From Girardia tigrina (Eukaryota): 58,656 nt of DNA. A model generated the notes under the pieces. The model made no database searches. It had not been told where the DNA came from and saw only the letters and a program-made list of their open reading frames with translations. The translations under genes and the position numbers were made by a program. Below, piece by piece: positions 12,801 to 56,890 of this stretch; the first letter of the stretch is position 1; each line of letters begins with the position of its first letter. The stretch spans positions 26,824 to 85,479 of the forward strand of contig MQRK01230279.1 in NCBI GenBank assembly GCA_001938485.1. Reading direction: 5' to 3'.

Positions 12801-15800
12801 GTTAATTTATTTCACAATTTTTATTAGATTGAAAAGAAATTTAAAAAATAATGGCAAGTTTCTATTGAAATCAGTGACGCCATTCAAAAAATTAAATTTT
12901 ATTTTTGCAATATATTTCGGTGGATTTTCCACCATCTTCAGGCTTGATTAACAACAATTTCGTTGTCTTATTGTTGCAAATTGATGATTATGCTAACATC
13001 TTGTGTAATGACTAATTAAATATTTTCAACAAAGTGGAAGAGAGACTTGTTTAGACATTAATGGACGAATTAAGTGATTTAATCAATAATGCCTCACAAG
13101 TAACTCTCTCTCAATAATTTTAAAAATTACTACACAATATTTTAAAATAAGTTGTTTTTATCTCCGATCTAAGAACTTTCATATGTCCAGCAATATTGCT
13201 CCCATTACCCAATCGTCCATGCTCTTGAATCCGTTTATAGAGATGACGAGACGTCTCTCCAATGTATGTGGCATTGTACCTGTTCGATTCGCATGGGGGG
13301 CCCATATCGAGGTGCACCCAAGGAAAAACACAGTGACAGTTTCATCTCATGGCTCATTCCCACCGTCGATTGTCTCATTTGTTTTGGAGAGGATTTGTTG
13401 AAGAGAGGGGATAGTAGCTCGTGTGAAAATGTGATTGATGCATTTTGCAATTATTTTGTTCTCTCCATTTCCGGAAATCTGACGGCTGTTCGTCGAACAC
13501 TTCGGACAATTTTGAATATGAGGAATCATTTGATACAACATGTGGAGTATTGCAGATTGATTGGTTCGTTTTTCTTATGATCGGTAAAATGATTTGTAAT
13601 CGCGTTGAGAGTCTGAATTTCATTCTCATTTGTTGCTTAGATGACTCCACTCCCACAACCGGCATCGGCGAGTCAATTGATGATGATGGCGATCACCTGG
13701 ATAGGGGGAAGCCTTTGATCAGTTAACCTTAGCAGTTGTGATTTTTTTCTCTGACTTGTTTTGTAATGTGATTTGATTGAATATAGAAAGAAAAGAGAGA
13801 AGTAGAAAAAAGATACCAAAATGGCACAGGATTGAATAATAAGGAGAATATACATCATCAGAAAAGGAGTTGTGTGGGGAAGCCGCGTTGTAGTGGCAAT
13901 TATTTTTTGTAGAAAATTGTTGTGAACTTTCGGCCGTTTTGATTGGCCAGTTGTTTTTGACTTTTTTAGAAATCGATTGTTTGAGTCGATCAATCGGGGA
14001 AATTTGGCGCAGTTATAATTTAATTTAAAATTGTAAATATTGCGGCCATTGATTCTGGAAAATATATTTGGCGCATTGTAAATTTAAATAAAAAATATAT
14101 GGCGGCCATTGAATTGATTTGTGTTCCTTTTGATTTCGAAATTTCAATGTAATCGACGATATGTTTCGACAATTGAGCGTCAATGAGAGAGTCTGTTTCA
14201 AATCGGAAATACCGTGGAAGTTCGTTGTGAGATTTGTCATGTATGGAAAAAGTTGGACGTTGTTGAGATGATTTATTAAAATTTTCGTGTGGCATCTTGA
14301 TGTTCGTCAACCGTTTGTGAGATTTAAAGCCATGAAAGCTGTTAGGATTTTGTTGAACGAATTGACCAATGATTTCGGGATTCCGGATAAGTTGTTCGGG
14401 CCAATCCTAGGTGCTTTATTAAAACGATTTTGGGACGTGAAAAGCTTCATAAGGTCGGAAACGGCGAACGCTGCGTCCAGATTACAGTCGCCTACGGACA
14501 TCTGTTGTCCGATCGCAGTCTCGTTGATCCATTTGTGCAAGCCCGATAGTTTTCGGTTGGTTTGAGGGCTGTTCGGATATGTTGAATGATGAGATCTGAG
14601 AGTTGACCAAGGACGAAATGTGGCCGAATCTATTGAAGATGATCTGCGTTCCCTCAAAAGCGAATCAGCAGGCCGAATTTGGTGAGTTCAGATCTTCTCA
14701 CCCCTCTCGTCCCGGAAACACCAAACTCTCAGCCCCGGGACGCCACCACCGCGTTGCACCCGCTTGTGCACCAACAGCACCCATTACACGAAAATTGTTA
14801 AACCATATTGGAACATAAACTCAAAAAAGTATGAGATTTATTACTGAACGTACTTTGAATTTTTATTAGATTGTCTACTTTTTGTACCTAGGTGTTTCGT
14901 AACAAATTCCTGAACCCCCCAACCCCCATGCCACAAATCTTCACAAATTGCCAGACCACCCACACCCCTTTAAGCGTTACATATTTAATGAACAGACCCT
15001 TACCTGGAACAGTTTTACGTCTAAATTACGATATTAGATCATGTAAAACAATCTTTTCTTTTATCATGATGATGACAGTTGATCTGTCGAAATATATTCC
15101 CGTTAAAAAATCTTTTTAAATATATAACTTTTGTTTTTCATAAAGTAAAATATGTTTAATTTTTATTTATTGTTTATAGGGAAATGTTCCTATTGAAACA
15201 GTTTATCAAAGTCAGAAAGATCAGTCAGAAACAGCTCATTCTAGATCTCGGCAATACGAAGAAAATTATACAAAATTTTTGACAGATCTTGAGACTACTC
15301 CGGCCTTGCATGGCATATTAACGGTACGGTGCCTCCTAGATGCTAACCAAAACTTTTTAAGAAAATACGGATTTACTGATCCATATTGGATACAAAAGAA
15401 GGTTAATAATTTTTAAGTATATAGATATAATTTATAAACATTTAAAAAAAGCAATCATTACTGGTACAATTATTCTGTTTTATATGAATCCAAGAGAATG
15501 AATCCTTCATTCTCTTTGGAAAAAAAGTTTATGTAATACTGATTGACCATTTTTCTTTTCGTTGTCTTCATTTATTCAATAATTTAATTGAAGTTTTGAC
15601 TTCGAATTCTTCATTTCCTCAAAAGCCAATTGTTTGATTACATGTCGGTGCCATTTGATTTAGAGGCAAAATTCGTGACATTCATTTTTCGTGCTTAAAG
15701 TGCAGTACTCTCAAAGTTTCACCAAGCACAGTATAATATTTTTTTCAAATCGCCCTTTTTTAACCACCTAGATTGGTGGTTGGTCGAACATCAATCATTG

Positions 15801-40838: not shown

Positions 40839-41061
40839 TTATAAAATTAAGAAGAAATTCTCACTAAGATAATAATTCCAAGAACTGTTGACACATTCAC
40901 TGACCGAGTTCGATAAGTGACTATAATCTTTAAAAATAAAGCTTATATATTTATTTCCGTCACAATCGTTAGTTTGAAGCGATACATTAACATTATTTGC
41001 CTGATCTTGACGATGCTTCTTAGAAATTTCCGTGTATCCTAATTCATCATCACTTAGGTCC
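40839..41061 (-). CDS. FIG4: FIG4 putative terminal exon
   Basis: cacag acceptor after a 49-nt intron; in phase to TAA. Confidence 0.65.
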
Positions 41062-44000
41062 CTGTGAAAGGTTAGATCAAGCAAAATTAAAGACTAAAAA
41101 TATTCAATACGTAACACTATCACTTGATACGGATTTATTATCATTGAACTTCTCATTTCTTAGTGCTTTCATAACCACGCCAGAGGTCAGAGTCCCGACA
41201 GAATCCATTTGGCCTGATTTTTCATTCTCAGACCGATCCCATCTTGCACAGCCATTATAAAATACTGTTGCTTGACTTTTAAACTCTTCAATATCAAAGG
41301 ATTTATTTTCAACATCGTATAAATTCATGCTAAAATCAAATAATCCAATGGAATTTCGATTAAGAGTTATCATATCAATTAGATATGTATAACATTTCTC
41401 GAAATCGGTTCTACACGGTGTTTGTTTATTTGAAGATGCGATATTTAAAGCCCTAAAAGTTAAAAATAAATATAAATTAAACTGGAACAATTTTTCTATA
41501 ATTAATTTATTATTATTATTTTTTATCAAATTATTATTATTATAAAAAAAACAAAACTCATCCATTTTCAAATATATTTATGAAAATTAATAAATTTCGC
41601 TAAAATGGTAAATTACCTTCAACAGAAGATTAAGAATTTCTTACTTCTTTATTATCAAATTTTAACCCATTACCTATCAGTGATGTCATATGAGATCACT
41701 TAAAAATCACAAATTTCGTGACTATCTGTCAGTATTTACACATATCTAACCGTTTTGCTATATCTATTAGATATATTTCTCTGATATTCAAATGAGGTTT
41801 GCTAATTTTTCACTGTAGATGTCTAAGGCTGTTTTATGCTAGAAAACAAAGTTCCAAAAAAAATTTTAGTTTATAGAATTATGGGAAGTAATGGGTTAAG
41901 AAACATATTCATATTTGTGAAAATATTGTAAATAAATGTTTATAGCAAAATGTTTACGATTACATGATTTTCATTTTGGATTTTCGAATTTATCAATTTT
42001 TCAAATATGATTTCAAATAAATTAACTTTGAATATTATGAATATCATTAAGTCATAGAAAGGAAAGGACCAAATGCTTTGCAAATGGTACAGATATTGTG
42101 AAAAGCGAAAACAAAGTCATCTTCATGGAGATGTGTCAATTGAGAGTTTACCGGAAGACTGAGGAAAGAAACTAATTAGACAGTATAGAATATTATTGAT
42201 CACATGCATGCTCCATACAATTCTAAGAACGAATCTGAAAAAGTCAAATCAAATATAATGCATGAACGCTGTAAACAGAGTAACGACGAATACGTACAAA
42301 TATATAAAAAATGCTAACTGTACTAAATTTGATAAAATTTATTATAGCGCATTTGTCTAAAATATTAAATTTATATTTCAATATTATTTTTAGTATTAAC
42401 GAATTAATAATACTAAATCAACATATTTTCAAAAACATTTATTAAATTTATTTTAGTACATTTGTCGGGATACCAAAATGATTTATCTTGCAAAATTAAT
42501 CGACATCTTTCAACAAATTGGTTTAGAGTGCTTAATTGATAATGAGATCTTATTAAAAATGCTTCATATGACACTCTCCAAATAATTTTGAAGTGCTTTT
42601 ACAGAATTTTGAAATTATTTATATTCAATTAACACTTCTAGGTTTTCCTATGCTTTATAATATTTTTTCATCGACACTCAACTAAAACAACATTTTTCAT
42701 TTTATCAATCTCTAACTGAAAGAATGAAATATGCATCAAATATTTCTATTCAAGCAGTTTTTCAAATCATCCCTCAGTTAAACCATAACCAGATAACCAT
42801 ATGACTAAGTCCTGAAAAGATAAGCATAAGCTTCGCGAGCTCATCAAATAGTTGTAAATTCTAAACATGGTACTTACCGCATATACACAAACGTCCTACG
42901 ACACGGTATACTGATGACTAAGCTGGCTGAAAAGGACAGCTAAATTCACGCACCGATTAAAAAGAGATAACGATATGTTTACGACGCGGGCGCTTCTGAG
43001 ACGTGGGTTATCTATCTAGGGTTAATTGGAAATCACGCATTTTATTAAAGACAATTTAAGATAAACTCATCGCATAAATCACCGTTATTGTAGTTCAAAT
43101 AAACACTTTCAAATTTTTTATAAAACATTTCTGTTTGCAACAATTATATTTACCACAACCAATCATTCCATCGAATCAAAAAGTTCATTTCTACCAATCA
43201 ATTTTTAAATAAGTGTGTTAAACAAATTTTAAAAATTCCATTTTCAAACAACTTCACAATAAAATCTTCATTGTTTTTTGTAGATAAGTTTTTTTTAACA
43301 AATAAATTTTATCATAAATATTTTTCAATATAAAGTAGTATTAAAATATAATCCAAATGGGAACGCTTCAGTTCATATCAAAATGGTTTCTCTGGCTACT
43401 AAAAGAGAGTACTGGTATTTTCATTCAAGTTTATCTCATGTTCATATAAATCTGAACAATGTACATCTCACTTCATGCAATTATATTGTAATCATTCTTT
43501 CTAATTTTAGAATTTAACAAAAGAGATTAAAGATTGAACAGTTCAAAATAATTAATAAGGTTTAAGCCAATTTATTTAACGTTAGAATAAGATTTATTTT
43601 AAACGTTTGTAGACAGACACCAGAGATGAGGCAACAGATGCTTTAATTTTAATATTGATAGAATAAGAGACGACACTTATTATTTCTTGAAAATTCAAAT
43701 TTCCATAAAAAGAATAAAGCTTATACTTAGATATTAAGTATAACATTTTTGCAAAAATAAATTCCAATATAAGATGACGAAAAGTATCGCGTCACCATAA
43801 TGTCAACTCCTCAAACAATTCGAATCACTGAAAAACATAGAAAATAAAAAAAAACTTGGTAAGATAAAAGGAAATCAAAGTTTCGAATTCGAAGCTACAA
43901 ACCTTCTTGTCATTTATGAATTACACCATCAATACTCAAAAATCCTTCATAGTCTTAACTATCAAGATTAGGGGTTCCAATCCCGGAGCATATTTAAAAT

Positions 44001-47000
44001 CCCGGGATTTCGGGATTAAATTTCTTCCAATCCCGGGATTCAGATTACACTTTGATAAGTCTATTTTTACAATAAAAAACGAACAAAATAATATAAAAAT
44101 ATTCAATCGAAAAATAATAAATTTATAATTAGATAAAAAATCTAATAAATAACATTTATTTGTGACATAAGAATCATAATCGCGAAAAATTTAAGCGTAG
44201 AAAAGATAATTTTTCAAGAGTGTTATCATACAAATTGGAGCACATCTTATTGTATATATATTTAGCGGAAGAGAAGACTCTTTCCGATTCCACAGACATA
44301 GGAGGAATATTCAGTAAATATTGATATACACTCTCTAAATGTGGCCCTCGTTTGCCTGACAGGACTGCAATATTAATATCATAATTAATCAAACTTGAAT
44401 AGGATACCGGCTATGTTATATGTATTGTAACTGAATTTGAAAAAACAGCCGTAATAACTTTTTGTGGTCGGTACTCCATTATAAGATGGTCATTTGATGG
44501 TGATGACTCATTTCGTTCTTTTAAACTCCGAGGAATGTGAGTATTCTTTTCCAAACTTTGTACTTCATCATATTCTTCTTGTAATGGTTTAAGACGTATC
44601 AGTCTTTTTTGCTAACTGTGTTTGTGGGTTGTGCAGATATTGAAGGACAACTGATGCATCATTGTATGACTGTTCTAAAATTCTCTTGGGAAGAGATTTG
44701 AGAAGTTCTTCGCTAAGAAAATGAAATTGTGCTTGCATGTTCTGTTGAAGAAAATTTATTGTGGCTTCTGCAGTCAAAAGCGTAGTGTCGCTTCTGCAGA
44801 TAGGTATCTAAAATGACTTCAGTGTAGAAACGATTTACTTCATAATTTAAAAATCTTCATCAGTCAAATTGGCGTTCGTATTCAATTGAATGAGAGCTTT
44901 TTGAACAGGTAACTTTACAATTATCAGTCTTTTCAACATGTTAACTAAACTAACCCAACATGTTCTGCAGTCTAGAATCACAGACATATTGCTGGTCATG
45001 GTATTCTGTCGTCGTATGTAATTAAGTAAAATATATAATATTAGGAACGTCATTAGTCGTATAAATGTCTCCTGTTTCTTCCGACATTTAAATAACGAAA
45101 AAAATACAACTGGATTAAAATAATTTATTAATTTATAATTTTTGAATTTTCACACAAAATTTCTGTTTATTTAAACAACTGTTTTTATTTGAGGATATTT
45201 TTAGTATTTCTATTTTTAACCGTTTATTATAAATATAGATATGGATATAAATATAAATATTTAATAATACTAATAATTATTTAAATGTTGAGAACTAAAA
45301 TATCTTATAAATCTTACGCATAAAATATATTATATTCTGCGGCAATCGTTTAAATAATTTTACAACCTCTCGAGCTTTTTTTCATCACTTCTTTTATGAT
45401 CATAAAAAAATATTTGAGATTGTGACTTATAATATTTCTTAAGTGTTTTAGAGATTAAAAAATTGTTTTTGAAAAAATGCTTTTTTATTTTAAAACAAAA
45501 TTTTTTAATAAAAAAATACTAAAAATTTACTTTTAATTCTTACTAAGCTACATGCTTATAACCAGAAAATATTTACTACTCTTTTTGGTTAACCTAGTAA
45601 GAATTAAAAATAATTTTTTAGTATTTTTTAATAAAAAATTATTTTTAAATCTTACTAAGATAGAAAAGTAATTTTTAATAAAAAAAATGAGAAAAAAATG
45701 ACGAAATCAGTAATCCCGGGATATCGGGACACCCATTTTGGTCCGGGATCCCGAGATAGGAACCCCTAATCAAGATACATCGATTCTCTGAGTAATTTTT
45801 CATTCTCAAATCTTATAAAAAAATGAAATTATTATCCAAACGTGGCCCATTTTTGTTCATTGTAAACAATGATATCCTGAAACGTATTTTTTTAAAAATT
45901 CCAAATAAAAATCAAGCAATAAAATAATCAGTATATATAACCGGGTATAAATTTTACTTTGAATCTTAATTTAAAATAGAAACAAGTGTACTCCGAATAA
46001 TTTTTAAAGATTTTATAATTTATTTTAATTGTTATTGTAATTTTAAAATTATCAGTTTTTGTAATTATTTAAACAAAATAATGTAGAAATGCTTCTGATG
46101 TTCACAACATTAATATGATAATTACATTTTTCAAAATTTGTTTAATTATATACCTTTCCTTAACCTTTCTGGATAGACCGATCTCCAAAGCATAATTGTA
46201 TAATTCATTTAAGACTTTCCATTTATCCCACAAAACCAATGGCTTTGGAATAAAAGCAATTATATTTACAGGTAACCAAGTAGAAGAACAAAACTGAGAA
46301 GAGTCCAGGATGGATTGGCAATATCTGTCGTGGAGGAATACATCTGAATCCTTGTGATGCCAAATAGTTTCATTTGCCGACTGCCAAGGTTTAAAAATTC
46401 CAAGAAACAAATTGATAGACATTTGCTTTTCGTGGTCCGAAAATTTATTAGTGTAATACCTAAGATTTATTTATATTATAATTAAACTCAGACAATATTT
46501 TTAAGTCATAAATACAATATATTTGTATTTGAAAAATTTTACATATTGTTTTCATAAAACAAAATTTATTTTATTAATATTATTGTAATTTACTTTCGAT
46601 TTGACGAAACTAAAACACTTTGAGACATTCACAAGACAAAAAATAACAATTGTTGGGATAATTGGTCGCCTCTCTCCATTTGGAGTGTTACAAACTGTCT
46701 TGCTCAATTCTCACATCGATACAAAAAGTATAGAAAAATCATCTACGATTTTTTTATGAAATACAAAAATAAACCTTACAAGATTCCTTTACTGCATCAA
46801 CCTTACATGGACGTGAGTAACCAAACACTTCTCTTGGTCTACTATTCATATTCTAAAGAAAATTTCATGGGCTTGAGTAAGTCTTTTGGAGGATTTAATA
46901 ATGTATGAACAATGAATCCAAATAGTGCTGGCAAACATGATCAGGTGATGATAATAGATCAGGGCTCAGGCGAGCTTTTGTAGCCTTCGCTACTGATACA

Positions 47001-47283: not shown

Positions 47284-50200
47284 TCGTTGCTAATAAGACA
47301 CTATAACCCATTGATTAACATCCAAAATAGGAAAAGTAATGCAGTTTCAATATTAAATATCTTTAAATAAAATAAATGTTTAAAAATAAAAATATTAACC
47401 AATTGAACTTTAATATTTTTCATTAATTCGTTTCCTTATGTATTATAAATAAATTATTAAAAAAATAATAAACAGCAAAACAAATAAAGTTACTGAGAAT
47501 GATCGAAGAAATCCAACGTTGATTTGTTAAAAAAAATGCTTTAACAAATATCTCTTTATAAAAAAATGTTAATTATATAATTTATATTTATTATATATAT
47601 GAATGAATAAAAGATACCTGGATAATGCCTGTAGAAAATCCCGTGACTGAGCTGAAAATTTAGCTGTTTTTCTATACGTTTCAACATTGTGTACCAATGC
47701 ACTGCCTCCGTATTGAAGAGCCAATACATTACCATGGTTTTCGTAGAGAGTCAACAAAAGAAAATTTATTTAAAAGAACACAATAATAAAATAAAATCTA
47801 CCTGTAACATTTTGTCAAGAGATCTCATGCTGGTTATTTTAGTTGTATTTAAAATTCCCAAAGAAAATAACTGATACCCCAAAGCAGCTTGACCAATTAC
47901 GAACTGTGCAGTATTCGTACGATCAAGACAGTCAATACAATTAGTGCGAACTATTCCACATTGAACAGTGTTTGTTAACAGCCTAAAAGATGTTTATACA
48001 TTTATACATATATATTTACATATATACATATACATTTATATATATATATATATATTTGACGAGTCCGTATGGAATTCAAACTCATGATTAAGTGTAGACA
48101 TGATTTCAAAATTTTATTTCAATACAAATTCCTGTTTTTTAAACAAATTTCTGTGGAAAATTATTTTGTATTCGCAAACCTTTATAAATAAATATAAATA
48201 TGAATGCGTTAAAATTTAAATTTTAAAACCTCACCATTTTCAAGTTTACGATTTTTCCGACTTAGAGTTATATATCTCTATATATTTTTGTGTGTGCAAA
48301 ACAGTAGTAAATAAATTTACAAGCTAATACAATATCTAATTAAATTAGTTTAATTAAAGAGAATACGAAGAAATTATGGTTTTATCAATATCAAAAGGAC
48401 AATGGATTGCGGAAAACAGTAATATACTATGACACAGATGAAGGAAAAGTCTCTCCAATGTGATCCTCCCTTCGTATAAAGGTATTAAGCCAGAGGCTTT
48501 TTACGAGGTTCTGAGACGCTTATGGCTTCAAAAGGCACTCCCCCCATGCGGGGATTTACATGTCTAAGCTCCACCGGCGAACCTGCTTCACAAAAACCCT
48601 TACCAAAATTAGAAACCTTGGATCATTGCGATGCAATCAACCAAGGGGGTCACTACTCCATACAGCTATGACACTCAGTTTTGCAGCTGGGCCGTCAAGC
48701 AATTGGTTTGCTAGTCCAATAACAATACATCGGCTGCCGACTGTTCAAACAGCAAATGGCCCAGCTCAGGACGCTTTCACTTATAGAAGAGAACTCTAGT
48801 TTCCCAGGGATTCCACAGGGAGGTACATCCAAACTGGCCTAGCACTCATTGATGTACGAATTTTGGTACCTGTGAGAATTAAATTTATAAACCAGATAAG
48901 CATACAATCCACAAATCATTTTCGATTTATTTGAGAGAAAGCTTTGAAAGCTTTGGATGTCATTGCTACAAATTTTAAACTACATATATTCTTAAAAAAA
49001 TACTTTTTTAAATATATTAAATCCTTTAGAATATAGTATTTTGATTATATGTGTTTGTGCTCTTTAATGTTTTCTTCTATGAATCCTTTTCTAGCCCATG
49101 CTTATTTAAATATTTTTGTCCTAAGTAACCTTGATTTTGTGATCTATGTTTCTTTGTGTACATTTTGTCCCTCGAGCGTCCTCTAAGAATATTTAAACCA
49201 TTATCAGCGATGTCAAAATTTGAAGACAAATTTCAAACTATGCATCTGTTATCCACCTGTTGGATATCTCTCATTCATCTTAGTGATAAAAATGTCAAGA
49301 AAAGTGAGTTCGTTATTTACTTCGATTCTGTTGTGAATTTCATTTTAGGATGAAAACCATTCAAGAATTTTAAGAACGGTTCTATTAGATTTCGATTCCT
49401 TAAATTAAGAAATGTGTTTTTACATATCTCTTGGACAGAACAAGTTTTACCTCATGGAATGTATTAATTTCATCCTTAAAGGATTCCAACGTGGTAGCTA
49501 ATGGGGAACTTATTTCAACTCCATCTTTCTGAATGTACGATTCATCGTTAAAAAGAAATGGGTAATTTTTGACAAAAAATTTAAGACACTCTTTCAGTCC
49601 CTCGTTGTTTATTATCTCATTCACTAAGTCAAAATTATCATCATATAATTTTTCACACAAATCAATAGTTTCATCCATGGACACATTTGTGAATAAGCGG
49701 AGATATCAAATGAGACAACACATTCAGTCACCCTTAGGTCCCTGATTCAAAATGAAATCTTGGAATTCAAAGTTATCCCTGATTTTAAATTCATTATAAA
49801 TCAAGGGACTCAATAATGAATCAAGAACCTTTGCGATCTTGTACTTTACAGTTTCAAATATTAAAAACTAATAACGCTTAAAACTAGCATTAAAACTAAT
49901 AAATAATTTGCAAATTAAATTATGATTGCTGATGATGAAGTATAAAACTTCAAAGCATGTTCAATACTAAATTTCTAAAAAAAAGCTTTAACAATTTCCA
50001 AAAGTAATGGGAGGAAATTATTTTATATGCATATCTGACAAAATAAATGAAAATCCAAAGTTAGTGGTACAACAACATCTGCCAACATAAAGAGAGTGTT
50101 CTGAATGGGATCACATTTACAGTTGTTTTCCCTGCAAGGTTTTGCAATGTTCAAACCACTCTTACGCTGCATGGCATGCTCTTTTGACCATGACCTGTGG

Positions 50201-53200
50201 TATTTCTTTAATGCTGCACTCGATCTTGTCTCAGAGCTCAGCAATGGTAGCATGCCTTATGCGGTACACATGCTCCTTCAGGTAGCCCCAGAGGAAGTAA
50301 TCACACATAGATAAGTCAGGCAAACAAGGGGCCACTCTATTGGACCTTTCTATCGATCCACTGCTGAGGAAACTTTTGGTCGAGCAAGCTGCGTACTTAA
50401 GCTGCTTAATGGACAGAAACCCCGTCATACTGGAAGGTCGAGTGCAAGCCTCTTGTATCTCGCATAAGGCTACACAGCTGTTTGCAGCAGGTGTAGATAG
50501 GAATCAGCATCGACTGGACCATCGAAGAAGTAAGGTCCCAAGACACCCGCCGAAGTTACTACACCATGTCATAATGCCCTAGCGAGTTTAGAATCTGCTC
50601 GAGTGTGTGAATTCTTTGGACCCCACCGAACATTGTTGTGTCGTGACACTGCTCCAGATAGGTGAAACAAAGATTTTTCTGTCTCCATTATATGATCAAT
50701 TAAGTGAGGGTCGGCAAAGAATCTCTCCATAATCGATTTGGAAAACTCTTCTCGCCTATCAAAATCACAATCGCAGAGCATTGGCACATGTTGCAGACGG
50801 TAGGGTTTAAGATCAAGTTTCACAAGCAGGCGGTGGTAGCTCGTGCGTGGCAGGTCAAGAGCGGCTGCCTCACGAGGCACAGACGTTGAGGGATCTGCGG
50901 CGACAAACTTTTGGAGATCTTCAACGCTTCCAGTATGCTGAAATCGCTCGAACTGCCTTGGTTGTCAAAAACTGAGGAGGTGAGGAAGTAAAATGAAAAC
51001 GCCACCGTCTTTGTACCTCTTCATAATTCTAGAATAGTTCGTAGAGGAGTATAATTTTAATTCTCTCCTTAAGATGGTATTGTGTCGAGATTTCAATCAT
51101 CTGTAAATAAATGAGAATAGTCAGTGTTAAAACGTAAACATGAATTTCCGTGAAATAAAATGCCTTTCTGGAGATAGATTAAAACAAACATCCCCCCATT
51201 ACTTTTGAAACACCCTATATGTTTATATATAATTTTAAATATATAAATAATTTAAAAAATCATGTATTAATTTATACTTTCTTCCATATGACAATTGTTT
51301 CAAGAGAGCATCAGAATGAAAAAACCCTGTTTTTTGGATGCAATCTTCAGCGATGGGTAGCATTTTCACTAACACTGTTTTGGATTTGTTTCGTTGAATT
51401 CTTGCCATATCGAAATCGATATGCTTTAAAATATCATTTTCCAAATTAAAGTATTTGAAATAACTTTTTAAATAATCAATGGATTCGACGAACTTTTCCG
51501 ACAGAGGTCTTTCATAAAAATTACTTTTCCTCTGTTTAACTAGGTTTAAAATCAGAATAGGACTACCATAGCGATAGATTAAATTAGCAAAATGTCGCCC
51601 AGGAACATCATAATAAATATTTTCTGTCTGAATAGATATAAAAATTAATATTAGAACCAATTTGTTACAAACGTTTTTTTTTTTGAAAAATTACAAAAAA
51701 ATAAAATTATTAAACATTAAATAAAATGTCTTAATTGTTGTCGTATGTATTACTAGTGGTTATTTAATAGATTATAACATATGAAACATCATTTTTGAGC
51801 ATTTGAATAGCAACTTGTGTAAAAATAACGGAATATTTATTATTCAAAATAAATTTCGATTAATTCATCAATTTCACATCGAGATCGGAGTTTTTATATT
51901 CCTTCCTTATCGAAATTCGGTATTCTAAGTGTGAGAAGTGGTTGCAACATCAATATCAGAATTCATTTTAACTCAAATTATATCTTTATTATAAAACAAT
52001 TTTCAAACAAATTTTTCAACTTTTTCCTTAATTAATAATTAATTCGCCGATCTCAATTTTCAAATAATTTTTAAATTATTTTAAATTGCAATCAAAATAA
52101 TATTTAATTTTTAAAACATATTTATGCAAATTATTTATTTACGTATATTTAGTTTTTAATGGAAATATTTATTTTTTTCTAATTTGTTGTATATTTTAAC
52201 CTTTTATAATGTTTTTAAAACTTTGTTTTCAAATGAAAAAATTATATTATGTTTTTAATTTTGCATTTTTTTATAAAAAAACATGTTTTAATTTATTTTT
52301 AGTATTTTTGAAATTTTAGAAAATACTTTATATTTAATATTAAATTTTTGATGTTTAAAATATTAAATTTTTTAATCATATCCTTAATTGATTTTAAAAT
52401 TCTTAATAAATTAATATTTTTGAAAATACTGTTTTATCTGTTATCTCTTTTACTCCATTCATTTTTTTACTAAAATAATATTTTAAATAAAATAAATTTA
52501 TAAAGAATATTTTGAAATTCAAAGTTAAAACATTTAATTATTATTCTACTTAATTTTTAAAATTTTCAGTTTGATTTCAATTCAAAATAATTTTTAAAAC
52601 CATTTAAATTTTGATCAGACTACTAAATTAATTACCTCCTCATACTAAGATAGAAATTGGATTCTTGAATTTCTGCTTATTTTCTAGTATCAAAAAATAG
52701 GAAAAATTTTCGGTCGATTTAAAAATTAGTTTAAGATGTTAATATAATATTTCTAAAGATTTTAGTAATTTTCGACTTTGTTCTATTTTTTACTTCAAAT
52801 TCTTAAAACCTCAAACAAAACTGTTCTCACGTTCAGGATACTTAGTGTTTTTGATTGCATACGAAGAATTATTTCTCAGTTTTTACGAACTTCGGAACTT
52901 TCGAATTTCTTCCATTTAATTTCCATTTAAGGATTAATAATCTATTATAATTAAGATTTAGCAAGAATTCTTAAGCAAGTTCTACGAGGTCAAAATTTCA
53001 CTACACCCATTCTCATTTATTTATGCCACAAAGGCATTTATATATGACAAAAATATATATTAATTATCGATATCGAATTAAATCTGTGATTATATAAATT
53101 TAAAATATGGCAAAAGAATGAAGCAACAGTGTTCTCGATTGCTCTATCTGCATAATGCGTATATGCGAACTGGGACGCTCTTGCAAATACAATTTAGATT

Positions 53201-55677: not shown

Positions 55678-56890
55678 CGCTCAAACCTCATTTTCCCGCC
55701 AGTAAATCACGCTGTAATAGTAAAAGTGTATGAATTCCCGCCACCCTTGATTTCCGCAATCCGCTACCGTTCACACAATTTAATGAGTCACCCAAACCTC
55801 ACTTTTCCGCCAATTAATAGTACAGTACAGTCAAACCTCTAGAATCGTCAATGAACATAAAGCTGATTTGTAGAAAATTCCTGCTTGTAAATTGGTAATA
55901 AGAATGATACTTTGTATATTTTTTTATCATTTGTGTAGGTGTAATGTCAGAGGCGCCATCGCTCACAAACATGCACACAACATTCTCGAGCTGACATTTG
56001 CAGTATCTCAGATTATTGTACAGTACTGTAGTCATTTTTTCTGATAGCAATGAGTGAGGAACAGCTTGGTGTGAAGCGCAAGCGATTGTGCTTAACTGCT
56101 ACAGAGAAGCGAGAAATATGTGTGTACGCAAATGAACATTCAAGTCACTCTGCGCTGCAAATAGCGAATCATTCCCAGAAACCTCGGAAGACAATATCTG
56201 ATATTCTTTCTGAGAAGACCAAATGGATCAATGTTTCTAGCGATGAATTGAAGAACAAGTATGAAAGAGATGGAATGATTCCCAATACTACTACTCTTTC
56301 AGTGGTTTGTGGACATGAGAAGAAGAAGGGTGGTGGTCACAGATGAAATATTGAAGAAGAAAGCAGCTGATTTCAATGCTCAGGTTGGTACAGTAATGGC
56401 CATGGGTGGAATGCTGTAAATCTCATTACAGATGTAAATTGTCCTTTTTTGCAGATCACCGAGTCCAATGGTCTCAAGTTTTCAAATGACTGTGTGGCTT
56501 GCTTCAAGCAGAGACGAAACATTCACTGGGACAAGCTACGCAGTGAATCAGCTAGCGTTGACGAAGCAACAGTGACGAACGAACTTCTTCAAGTTCAAGA
56601 AGGATGGAAGCATTTCCGCAAAGAGGATGCCTACAACATGGACGAAACGGGATTATTCTTTCGCATGCTCCCTGATCGATCATTTGTGCACATGTCTGAA
56701 GAAAAGAAAGGAGTAAAAAAAAGCGAAAGAACGAGTGGCCGTCGCTCTATGTGCAAATGCATCTGGAAGCCACAAGCTGAAACCACTTGTGATTGGTCAT
56801 TTGAAGAAGCCCAGTTAATTACAGAACTTCAACCAAAATTTCTACGCTGACTACGACTTCAACAAGAAAGCATGGATGACGAGGGCTCTC
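55678..56890 (+). mobile_element. Tigger/pogo 5' part, truncated, intron-containing
   Basis: cagtcaaacctc TIR-like ends; KRKRLCLTATEKREIC, LKFSND, YNMDETGLFFRMLPDRS, NASGSHKLKPLVIG, NKKAWMT. Confidence 0.85.

Follow-up and report, generated by a model that had tools for sequence, protein, structure and literature searches.

The seventh intron of a FIG4 gene on the minus strand of the window, by which we mean the whole stretch of 58,656 nucleotides analysed here, is 50 nt long and ends in TG in place of AG. We regard it as roughly an even bet that this intron is removed by the ordinary U2 spliceosome with the TG as its only acceptor, in an intact and single-copy gene; the weights given to this and to the competing readings are matters of judgement and were not computed. 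The gene lies in a draft animal assembly of 1.43 Gb in 255,254 contigs, with 22-37% GC; the animal is probably a flatworm, a placement in keeping with its short AT-rich introns. Four of 24 listed sequencing runs (X1, X2, X3 and X6) were compared at the locus, and the others, among them the small-share runs X17-X20, carry no weight here. None of the 24 is on record as RNA. X1 and X2 are DNA; X3 (study P2, organism A) and X6 (study P4, organism B) are treated as RNA, on the guess that small runs which join three exon pairs are of that type. One contig from each of X3 and X6 skips exactly positions 47752-47801, a cut that reads 'CA..AC' on the plus strand and GT..TG on the minus strand.

The gene model, built with neighbouring stretches of the contig, has 11 exons in an 856-aa open frame, separated by nine GT-AG introns and the one GT-TG intron. 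It shows 37-42% identity to three full-length homologues, and the best solved-structure match of three of its exons is FIG4 (7k1w_F), ahead of SAC1. The CIDCLDRT stretch of exon 7, which we take to be the catalytic motif of FIG4 (CxDCLDRT), aligns to PDB 7k1w. This catalytic exon occurs once across the assembly, with no second copy of the DNA. Exons 10 and 11 were placed by frame and length, their homology not being strong. The features of the gene and of the intron are as follows:

Upstream of the window, FIG4 exons 1-4, modelled from neighbouring contig stretches
54827..54976, minus strand, exon 5, from the gene model
51278..51627, minus strand, exon 6, matching Pfam Syja_N and PDB 7k1w; loose ends of the X3 and X6 contigs match its end
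47802..47982, minus strand, exon 7 with CIDCLDRT (PDB 7k1w, E 1.4e-15), covered by X3 and X6
47796..47804, minus strand, 5' splice site CAG/GTAGAT, U2-type and fairly strong, outscoring 121 of 149 canonical donors of the genome
47752..47801, minus strand, intron 7, 50 nt, GT..TG, from the sequence and skipped exactly by the X3 and X6 contigs
47769..47771, minus strand, candidate branch adenosines in TTTTAAAT at -20 to -18, suggested by a motif scan
47756..47764, minus strand, U-rich tract TTTTCTTTT, from the sequence
47755..47757, minus strand, second in-frame TG, 3 nt upstream, which would add a Leu; absent from the joints in X3 and X6
47752..47754, minus strand, TTG acceptor at which the RNA-like contigs join; the base in dispute is 47753, known from the assembly alone
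47708..47797, minus strand, stretch without AG that surrounds the acceptor; the AG that follows it ends at 47706 and is out of frame
47618..47751, minus strand, exon 8 (TLYENHG...LQYGGS...; PDB 7k1w, E 2.4e-11), from the RNA-like contigs and the gene model
46154..46459, minus strand, exon 9, from the gene model; loose ends of X3 and X6 match its start
41111..41452, minus strand, exon 10, modelled from the fit of frame and GT-AG, with weak homology
40839..41061, minus strand, exon 11 to the stop codon, modelled from frame and total length

On the minus strand (47801-47752) the region reads ...ATG TTA CAG/GTAGAT...TTTTCTTTTGTTG/ACT CTC TAC GAA, with the intron itself running GTAGAT...TTTTGTTG. 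A minus-strand FIG4 intron with a GT..TG boundary at this place had been proposed in a preliminary description of the DNA, and both the sequence and the joints of the RNA-like contigs confirm it. The same description held that the intron cannot be retained and that the downstream AGs are out of phase and would cost conserved residues, and this too is borne out: retention introduces an in-frame TAA, the AGs past the acceptor at +46, +50, +80, +88 and +100 are every one out of frame, and the first in-frame AG, at +105, would remove 35 residues including LQYGGS. Within the intron there is one AG, at bases 3-4. The further assertion that homology alone fixes the junction has to be given up. The spacer from CxDCLDRT to LQYGGS is 49 residues after the 50-nt cut, a length shared by 77 of the 87 homologues that carry both motifs (151 examined), but a 50-residue spacer, which the in-frame TG 3 nt upstream would yield, occurs in 7 of the 87. 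The junction is instead fixed exactly because the X3 and X6 contigs both join 47751 to 47802; the joint is ambiguous by a single letter, and the alternative reading, GG..TT, is worse. Both contigs also run on into exons 6 and 9 and thereby join the flanking GT-AG introns. Thus, a FIG4 mRNA with the predicted 50-nt intron removed exists among the RNA-like contigs, which, as contigs drop minor forms, say nothing on the efficiency of splicing or on retention. Use of another junction by transcripts, which the preliminary description had named as counter-evidence, was not seen in the RNA-like runs X3 and X6, and the four runs compared list no other joint.

A reading to which we give next to no credence is that the gene is dead or that the junction arose without the spliceosome, through template switching, a processed copy or IRE1-type cleavage. 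Non-canonical junctions are often artefacts according to the available part of one survey (PMC1557818), and it is a guess that X3 and X6 are RNA; against this, the frame is intact and the two contigs carry the flanking GT-AG joints as well. Template switching is rejected as the one shared letter at the joint amounts to no direct repeat, and a processed copy as none was found in the genome. Introns of the HAC1/XBP1 type have stem-loops at both cut sites; a non-spliceosomal intron of this kind is likewise rejected, the 50 nt having no stable fold and folding no better than shuffled sequences (z -0.54). The loss-of-function allele offered in the preliminary description, understood as a dead gene, finds no support either: the gene is single-copy, the X6 contig of 2789 nt corresponds to the modelled coding sequence, with the predicted junction, plus 5' and 3' flanks of 90 and 128 nt, and the claim that all other exons are intact holds for the entire model, including the four exons upstream of the window. 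A null FIG4 gene is therefore unlikely, given a single copy with an intact 856-aa frame.

Among the marks of a U2-type intron, intron 7 has a GT donor that fits the profile of the genome, a U-rich tract and a typical length, and it lacks the terminal AG. Its 50 nt fall at the modal size of short introns (48-52 nt in 35/101), and its acceptor context, scored without the last two bases, surpasses that of 89 of 149 canonical GT introns. TTTAA at -20 is among the commonest 5-mers, and the short introns of the genome show no sharp positional peak for the branch point. As for the AG-free surroundings, a next AG at least 46 nt downstream is seen in 4/149 canonical introns, and absence of any other AG within 46 nt on either side in 1/149 (within 28 nt, in 20/149). 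Such an AG-poor context favours a site working without a competitor, and nothing would steer a random error to an intron of this kind. The argument is nevertheless post hoc: in three other FIG4 introns the gap to the AG measures 32, 34 and 42 nt, and resampling of synonymous codons gives a gap of at least 46 in 25% of draws, and hence there is no sign of active purging of AGs.

Close full-length relatives comprised one rotifer protein among 130 candidates, the closest of the 150 representatives listed is 47% identical, and a metagenome scan, from which 80 of 442 loci were kept, returned no close relative (best identity 79%). Of these 80 loci, 19 are contiguous, 20 are interrupted at other positions and 41 are without the downstream motif; as none has an intron at the site of intron 7, nothing here points to an intron that is ancient or derived from the U12 type.

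To see whether the organism tolerates such ends in general, we carried out a census of myosin, kinesin and dynein genes in 136 stretches (950,569 bases), calling junctions with paralogues spanning them. In its first form the method picked up the FIG4 GT..TG junction, which served as a positive control; the refined version was run without that control. The refined census gave 187 distinct introns, 172 of them best fitting a canonical pair and 15 flagged. Inspected by eye, two of the flagged cases are deletions in the reference and twelve come from slips of the alignment (at micro-exons, at missed exons or by overshooting into the intron). One is a real non-canonical site, namely an AT donor in a cytoplasmic-dynein-like copy (L137:1851-1895, contig C254390) where three sister copies have GT. 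That copy also has frameshifts and stops and is a decaying duplicate. There are at least four such cytoplasmic-dynein-like copies, differing at 4-18% of the compared sites. None of these 187 introns ends in TG, which counts against a working TG acceptor and gives a 95% upper bound of about 1.6%, slightly optimistic in that some of the introns are from sister copies; therefore there is no genome-wide tolerance of TG at the percent level, and a tolerance like that of Rozella is rejected.

Base 47753 itself is known from the assembly alone, and here two further readings enter. It is possible, if doubtful, that alleles differ here between AG and TG, with the assembly keeping a TG allele of the sequenced animal (heterozygous or mosaic, and poorly or not spliced) and the transcripts deriving from AG alleles; the RNA may stem from animals with an AG allele. 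This has to be added as a fourth to the three readings of the preliminary description (a genuine sole TG acceptor, a loss-of-function allele or a consensus error), which thus stand in part, without the second. The locus does vary, as seen from position 47934 in X6 and the 26 of 33 sampled words in X2 (see below), clonal planarians carry many coding variants as reported in the accessible text of one study (PMC4654569), and SNPs that mask an AG are described as a source of false TG introns in the available portions of two surveys (PMC2374985, PMC4176328). The census moreover found one broken splice site among 187 introns of this assembly, but it sits in the decayed dynein duplicate with its frameshifts and stops, unlike FIG4. 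An allelic origin also sits poorly with the lack of a second FIG4 haplotype contig, though many genes here occur in 2-4 copies, and a random null allele does not predict the AG-free context (1-4/149). In the case of the motor genes, many are found on 2-4 identical or near-identical contigs each, and FIG4 on one.

The second of these readings, which we hold to be improbable, is that the true end is AG and that one base was miscalled or dropped in the consensus. The assembly is a fragmented draft, with four runs of N in the window, and a single change would give a normal acceptor: restoring the A yields an ordinary end, GTAG being found in 7/149 introns and TTAG, the commonest end in the genome, in 45/149, which also tells against a working TG. 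On the other hand, over the 319 flanking exon bases compared with the assembly, X3 has no difference and X6 has one (A>G at 47934, relative to both the assembly and X3), from which the local base quality is judged good, and an error does not account for the unusual AG-free context. The two DNA runs bear on the base through 33 words sampled at the locus, 31 of which are present in X1 and 26 in X2, where a holder of the exons only would have 25; the single difference of X6 costs 2 of the sampled words, and runs of related organisms contain 58% and 18% of them. Eight of the words are non-exonic, and about 2.5 of them are expected to overlap 47753. An AG allele would cost X1 at least 3 words about 47% of the time, whereas 31/33 allows at most 2 lost. 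Under assumed input values the word share of X1 favours TG over AG by 1.8-5.3 to 1 (a fit about 2-5 times better), evidence that is weak and not independent, as X1 may be the source sample. Beyond this, X1 and X2 yielded short matches, all of them unrelated, and no contig covering the FIG4 exons, a gap which proves nothing, and a search for gene calls on genomic DNA reading through the acceptor, where a TTG start exists only in the TG allele, gave no candidate.

We then considered the splicing machinery encoded by the genome. Three matches to U12 snRNA over the cut-off indicate that the minor spliceosome is present, and the branch motif of U12-type introns is TCCTTAAC. However, when compared with fly U12 donors the donor of intron 7 is GTAGATTT and not GTATCCTT, and on reading the 50 nt the U12 branch motif is absent; accordingly a U12-type intron is rejected. 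A changed catalytic core is rejected as well, as the ACAGAGA region of U6 and the Prp8 segment look ordinary on our reading, and a Prp18 gene is present. The sole Prp8 match (L042, contig C22731) lies within an uninterrupted frame of 1226 codons. In U2AF35, by contrast with almost all of its homologues, the arginine of zinc finger 2 is missing from all four genes found (ACCRQ being changed to ACCTQ, ACCAQ, ACCAQ and ACCMQ), one of which has introns and three of which are intronless over the part read. These genes are located at:

L050:1420-1932 together with L051, and L047, L048 and L049 (contigs C225704, C245923, C237948 and C193437), the four U2AF35 genes

The arginine is kept in 118 of 119 scorable homologues (120 listed), including those of a fluke and of Macrostomum, and the lone other homologue without it is an 89%-identical relative. 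In the yeast structure, according to the accessible part of its report (PMC7505975), this residue (S. pombe Arg150) is stacked against exon base +1 and also contacts +2. It takes no part in reading the AG, which is reported to fall to Phe20, Cys27, Arg28, Cys149, Arg159, Cys163, Asn164 and Phe165. All of these reported AG-reading residues are kept in the U2AF35 copies read, and G is still found at exon +1 in 74 of 152 introns of the genome, with no effect of the loss of Arg150 visible. A link between this loss and the TG acceptor is speculation. It is a long shot that a lineage with an Arg150-less U2AF35 constitutively splices a small class of short introns at a partnerless TG, with FIG4 intron 7 as a fixed member; the 0/187 of the census limits any such class to rare introns, and hundreds across the genome would still be compatible with it.

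TG acceptors as such are known. In humans they are used by 36 genes, and each such site has an AG no more than 28 nt away (Szafranski et al. 2007, PMC2374985), and the available sections of that survey describe them as 'never the sole 3' splice site' and conclude that a TG needs a nearby AG for the first splicing step and cannot be constitutive; of 39 human RefSeq GT..TG introns, 30 failed its quality checks, AG-masking SNPs being one named reason. The human sites cited there, in GNAS, RYK, ARS2 and PCBP2, resemble the FIG4 site in having a GT donor, a pyrimidine at -3, a TG end and a purine at +1, and the TG/ACTCTC context of intron 7 is the one given for PCBP2 and BAT3. They are, however, alternative sites with an AG at most 28 nt away, whereas the nearest AG past the FIG4 acceptor is at 46 nt and out of frame, such that its TG would be constitutive. 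Of the properties of the tandem class, a TG end in transcripts is present in the two RNA-like contigs and an AG partner within 28 nt is lacking. Intron 7 thus acts like a U2-type TG acceptor and yet is outside the TG-AG tandem class, because no AG lies within 28 nt. In Drosophila, GT-TG is the commonest non-canonical class (23/79 among 60,223 introns; PMC4528330), with several examples in short introns as in FIG4. All 13 of the coding ones have an AG alternative in supplement file 8 of that paper, and those without a GT-AG alternative are confined, in the material available, to 5' UTRs (CG15186 and CG1239), unlike the coding case of FIG4.

Other departures from AG come from mutant or minor events. 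Yeast lacking Prp18 has UUG among its most used non-AG acceptors, helped by an upstream poly(U) and by a contact with the first intron base (PMC10711555), and in C. elegans a TTTCAA acceptor still splices (cited in PMC4484395). In the part of the yeast work available, a U-rich tract and a retained terminal G suffice at such BG sites, UUG being one of those preferred, much as in FIG4, but for FIG4 this would be the normal route, in a genome that has a Prp18 gene. U12-type introns with lax 3' ends include one GT-TG case in the accessible text of Sheth et al. 2006 (PMC1557818), from which intron 7 differs by its donor and the missing branch motif noted above, although the genome has a U12 snRNA. 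In the available part of Parada et al. (PMC4176328), constitutive sites are reported to make up 24% of the non-canonical ones in humans, all types taken together. A literature search that covered few subscription papers brought up no planarian case and no constitutive TG acceptor, though the supplements of Parada 2014, Frey and Pucker 2020 and Szafranski additional file 1 may list some. It is mainly the poor base rates in the human and fly surveys that call for caution over a TG working alone here. For it speak the exact skipping of these 50 bases in RNA-like contigs of two studies, the common 49-residue spacer, the single copy and open frame, the strong donor, the AG-free context and the word share of X1.

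If the TG does serve as the acceptor, the short intron might be recognised across its length, with U1 bound to the good donor, and U2AF65 and U2 to the U-rich tract and to a branch A lying some 19 nt before the acceptor, and the first splicing step could proceed without need of an AG. For the second step, the spliceosome would dock whichever site fits best at the customary distance, and here that would be UUG: its -3 pyrimidine is intact, as is the final G, which makes contact with intron base 1, and the one thing missing is the A at -2. A TG end would thereby forgo the contact that this A makes with the branch A. The lack of an AG for 46 nt downstream would leave no competitor. Such an end probably arose from AG, through the change or loss of a single base that was then tolerated, and there is no hint of a regulatory role.

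Were a TG confirmed as the only acceptor of an intron in a conserved, single-copy gene of an animal, this would mean that short introns can be spliced without any AG, and it would run counter to the published rule by which a TG acceptor cannot function on its own, to which the fly list, as far as the available file goes, has no coding exception. It would also provide a natural and easily tested 50-nt substrate for asking when U2AF35 and the AG are needed, one tractable by RNAi if the animal is a planarian. Gene predictors confined to GT-AG introns would cut FIG4 short directly after the catalytic motif. Should an allele difference or an assembly error lie behind the TG, the case reduces to a note for curation.

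Several other elements were noted in the course of the analysis. SAC-domain exons on four contigs (L014-L017), with identical scores and 55% to the FIG4 exon, may represent a SAC1-like gene, either as its haplotypes or as multiplied copies. Tandem CCCH zinc fingers belong to a large repeat family (L027-L041 and about 100 further places), many of them in long open frames. Within the window the FIG4 introns house broken transposase-like frames (44177-45149, 50234-50964 and 56032-56847), which by resemblance we take to be hAT-, Tc1- and Tigger-like. On the plus strand, exon-like frames at 227-26883, spread over 27 kb, resemble what is presumably a PANK4-type gene, and frames inside this span (14272-15413) resemble what we take to be condensin CAP-G.
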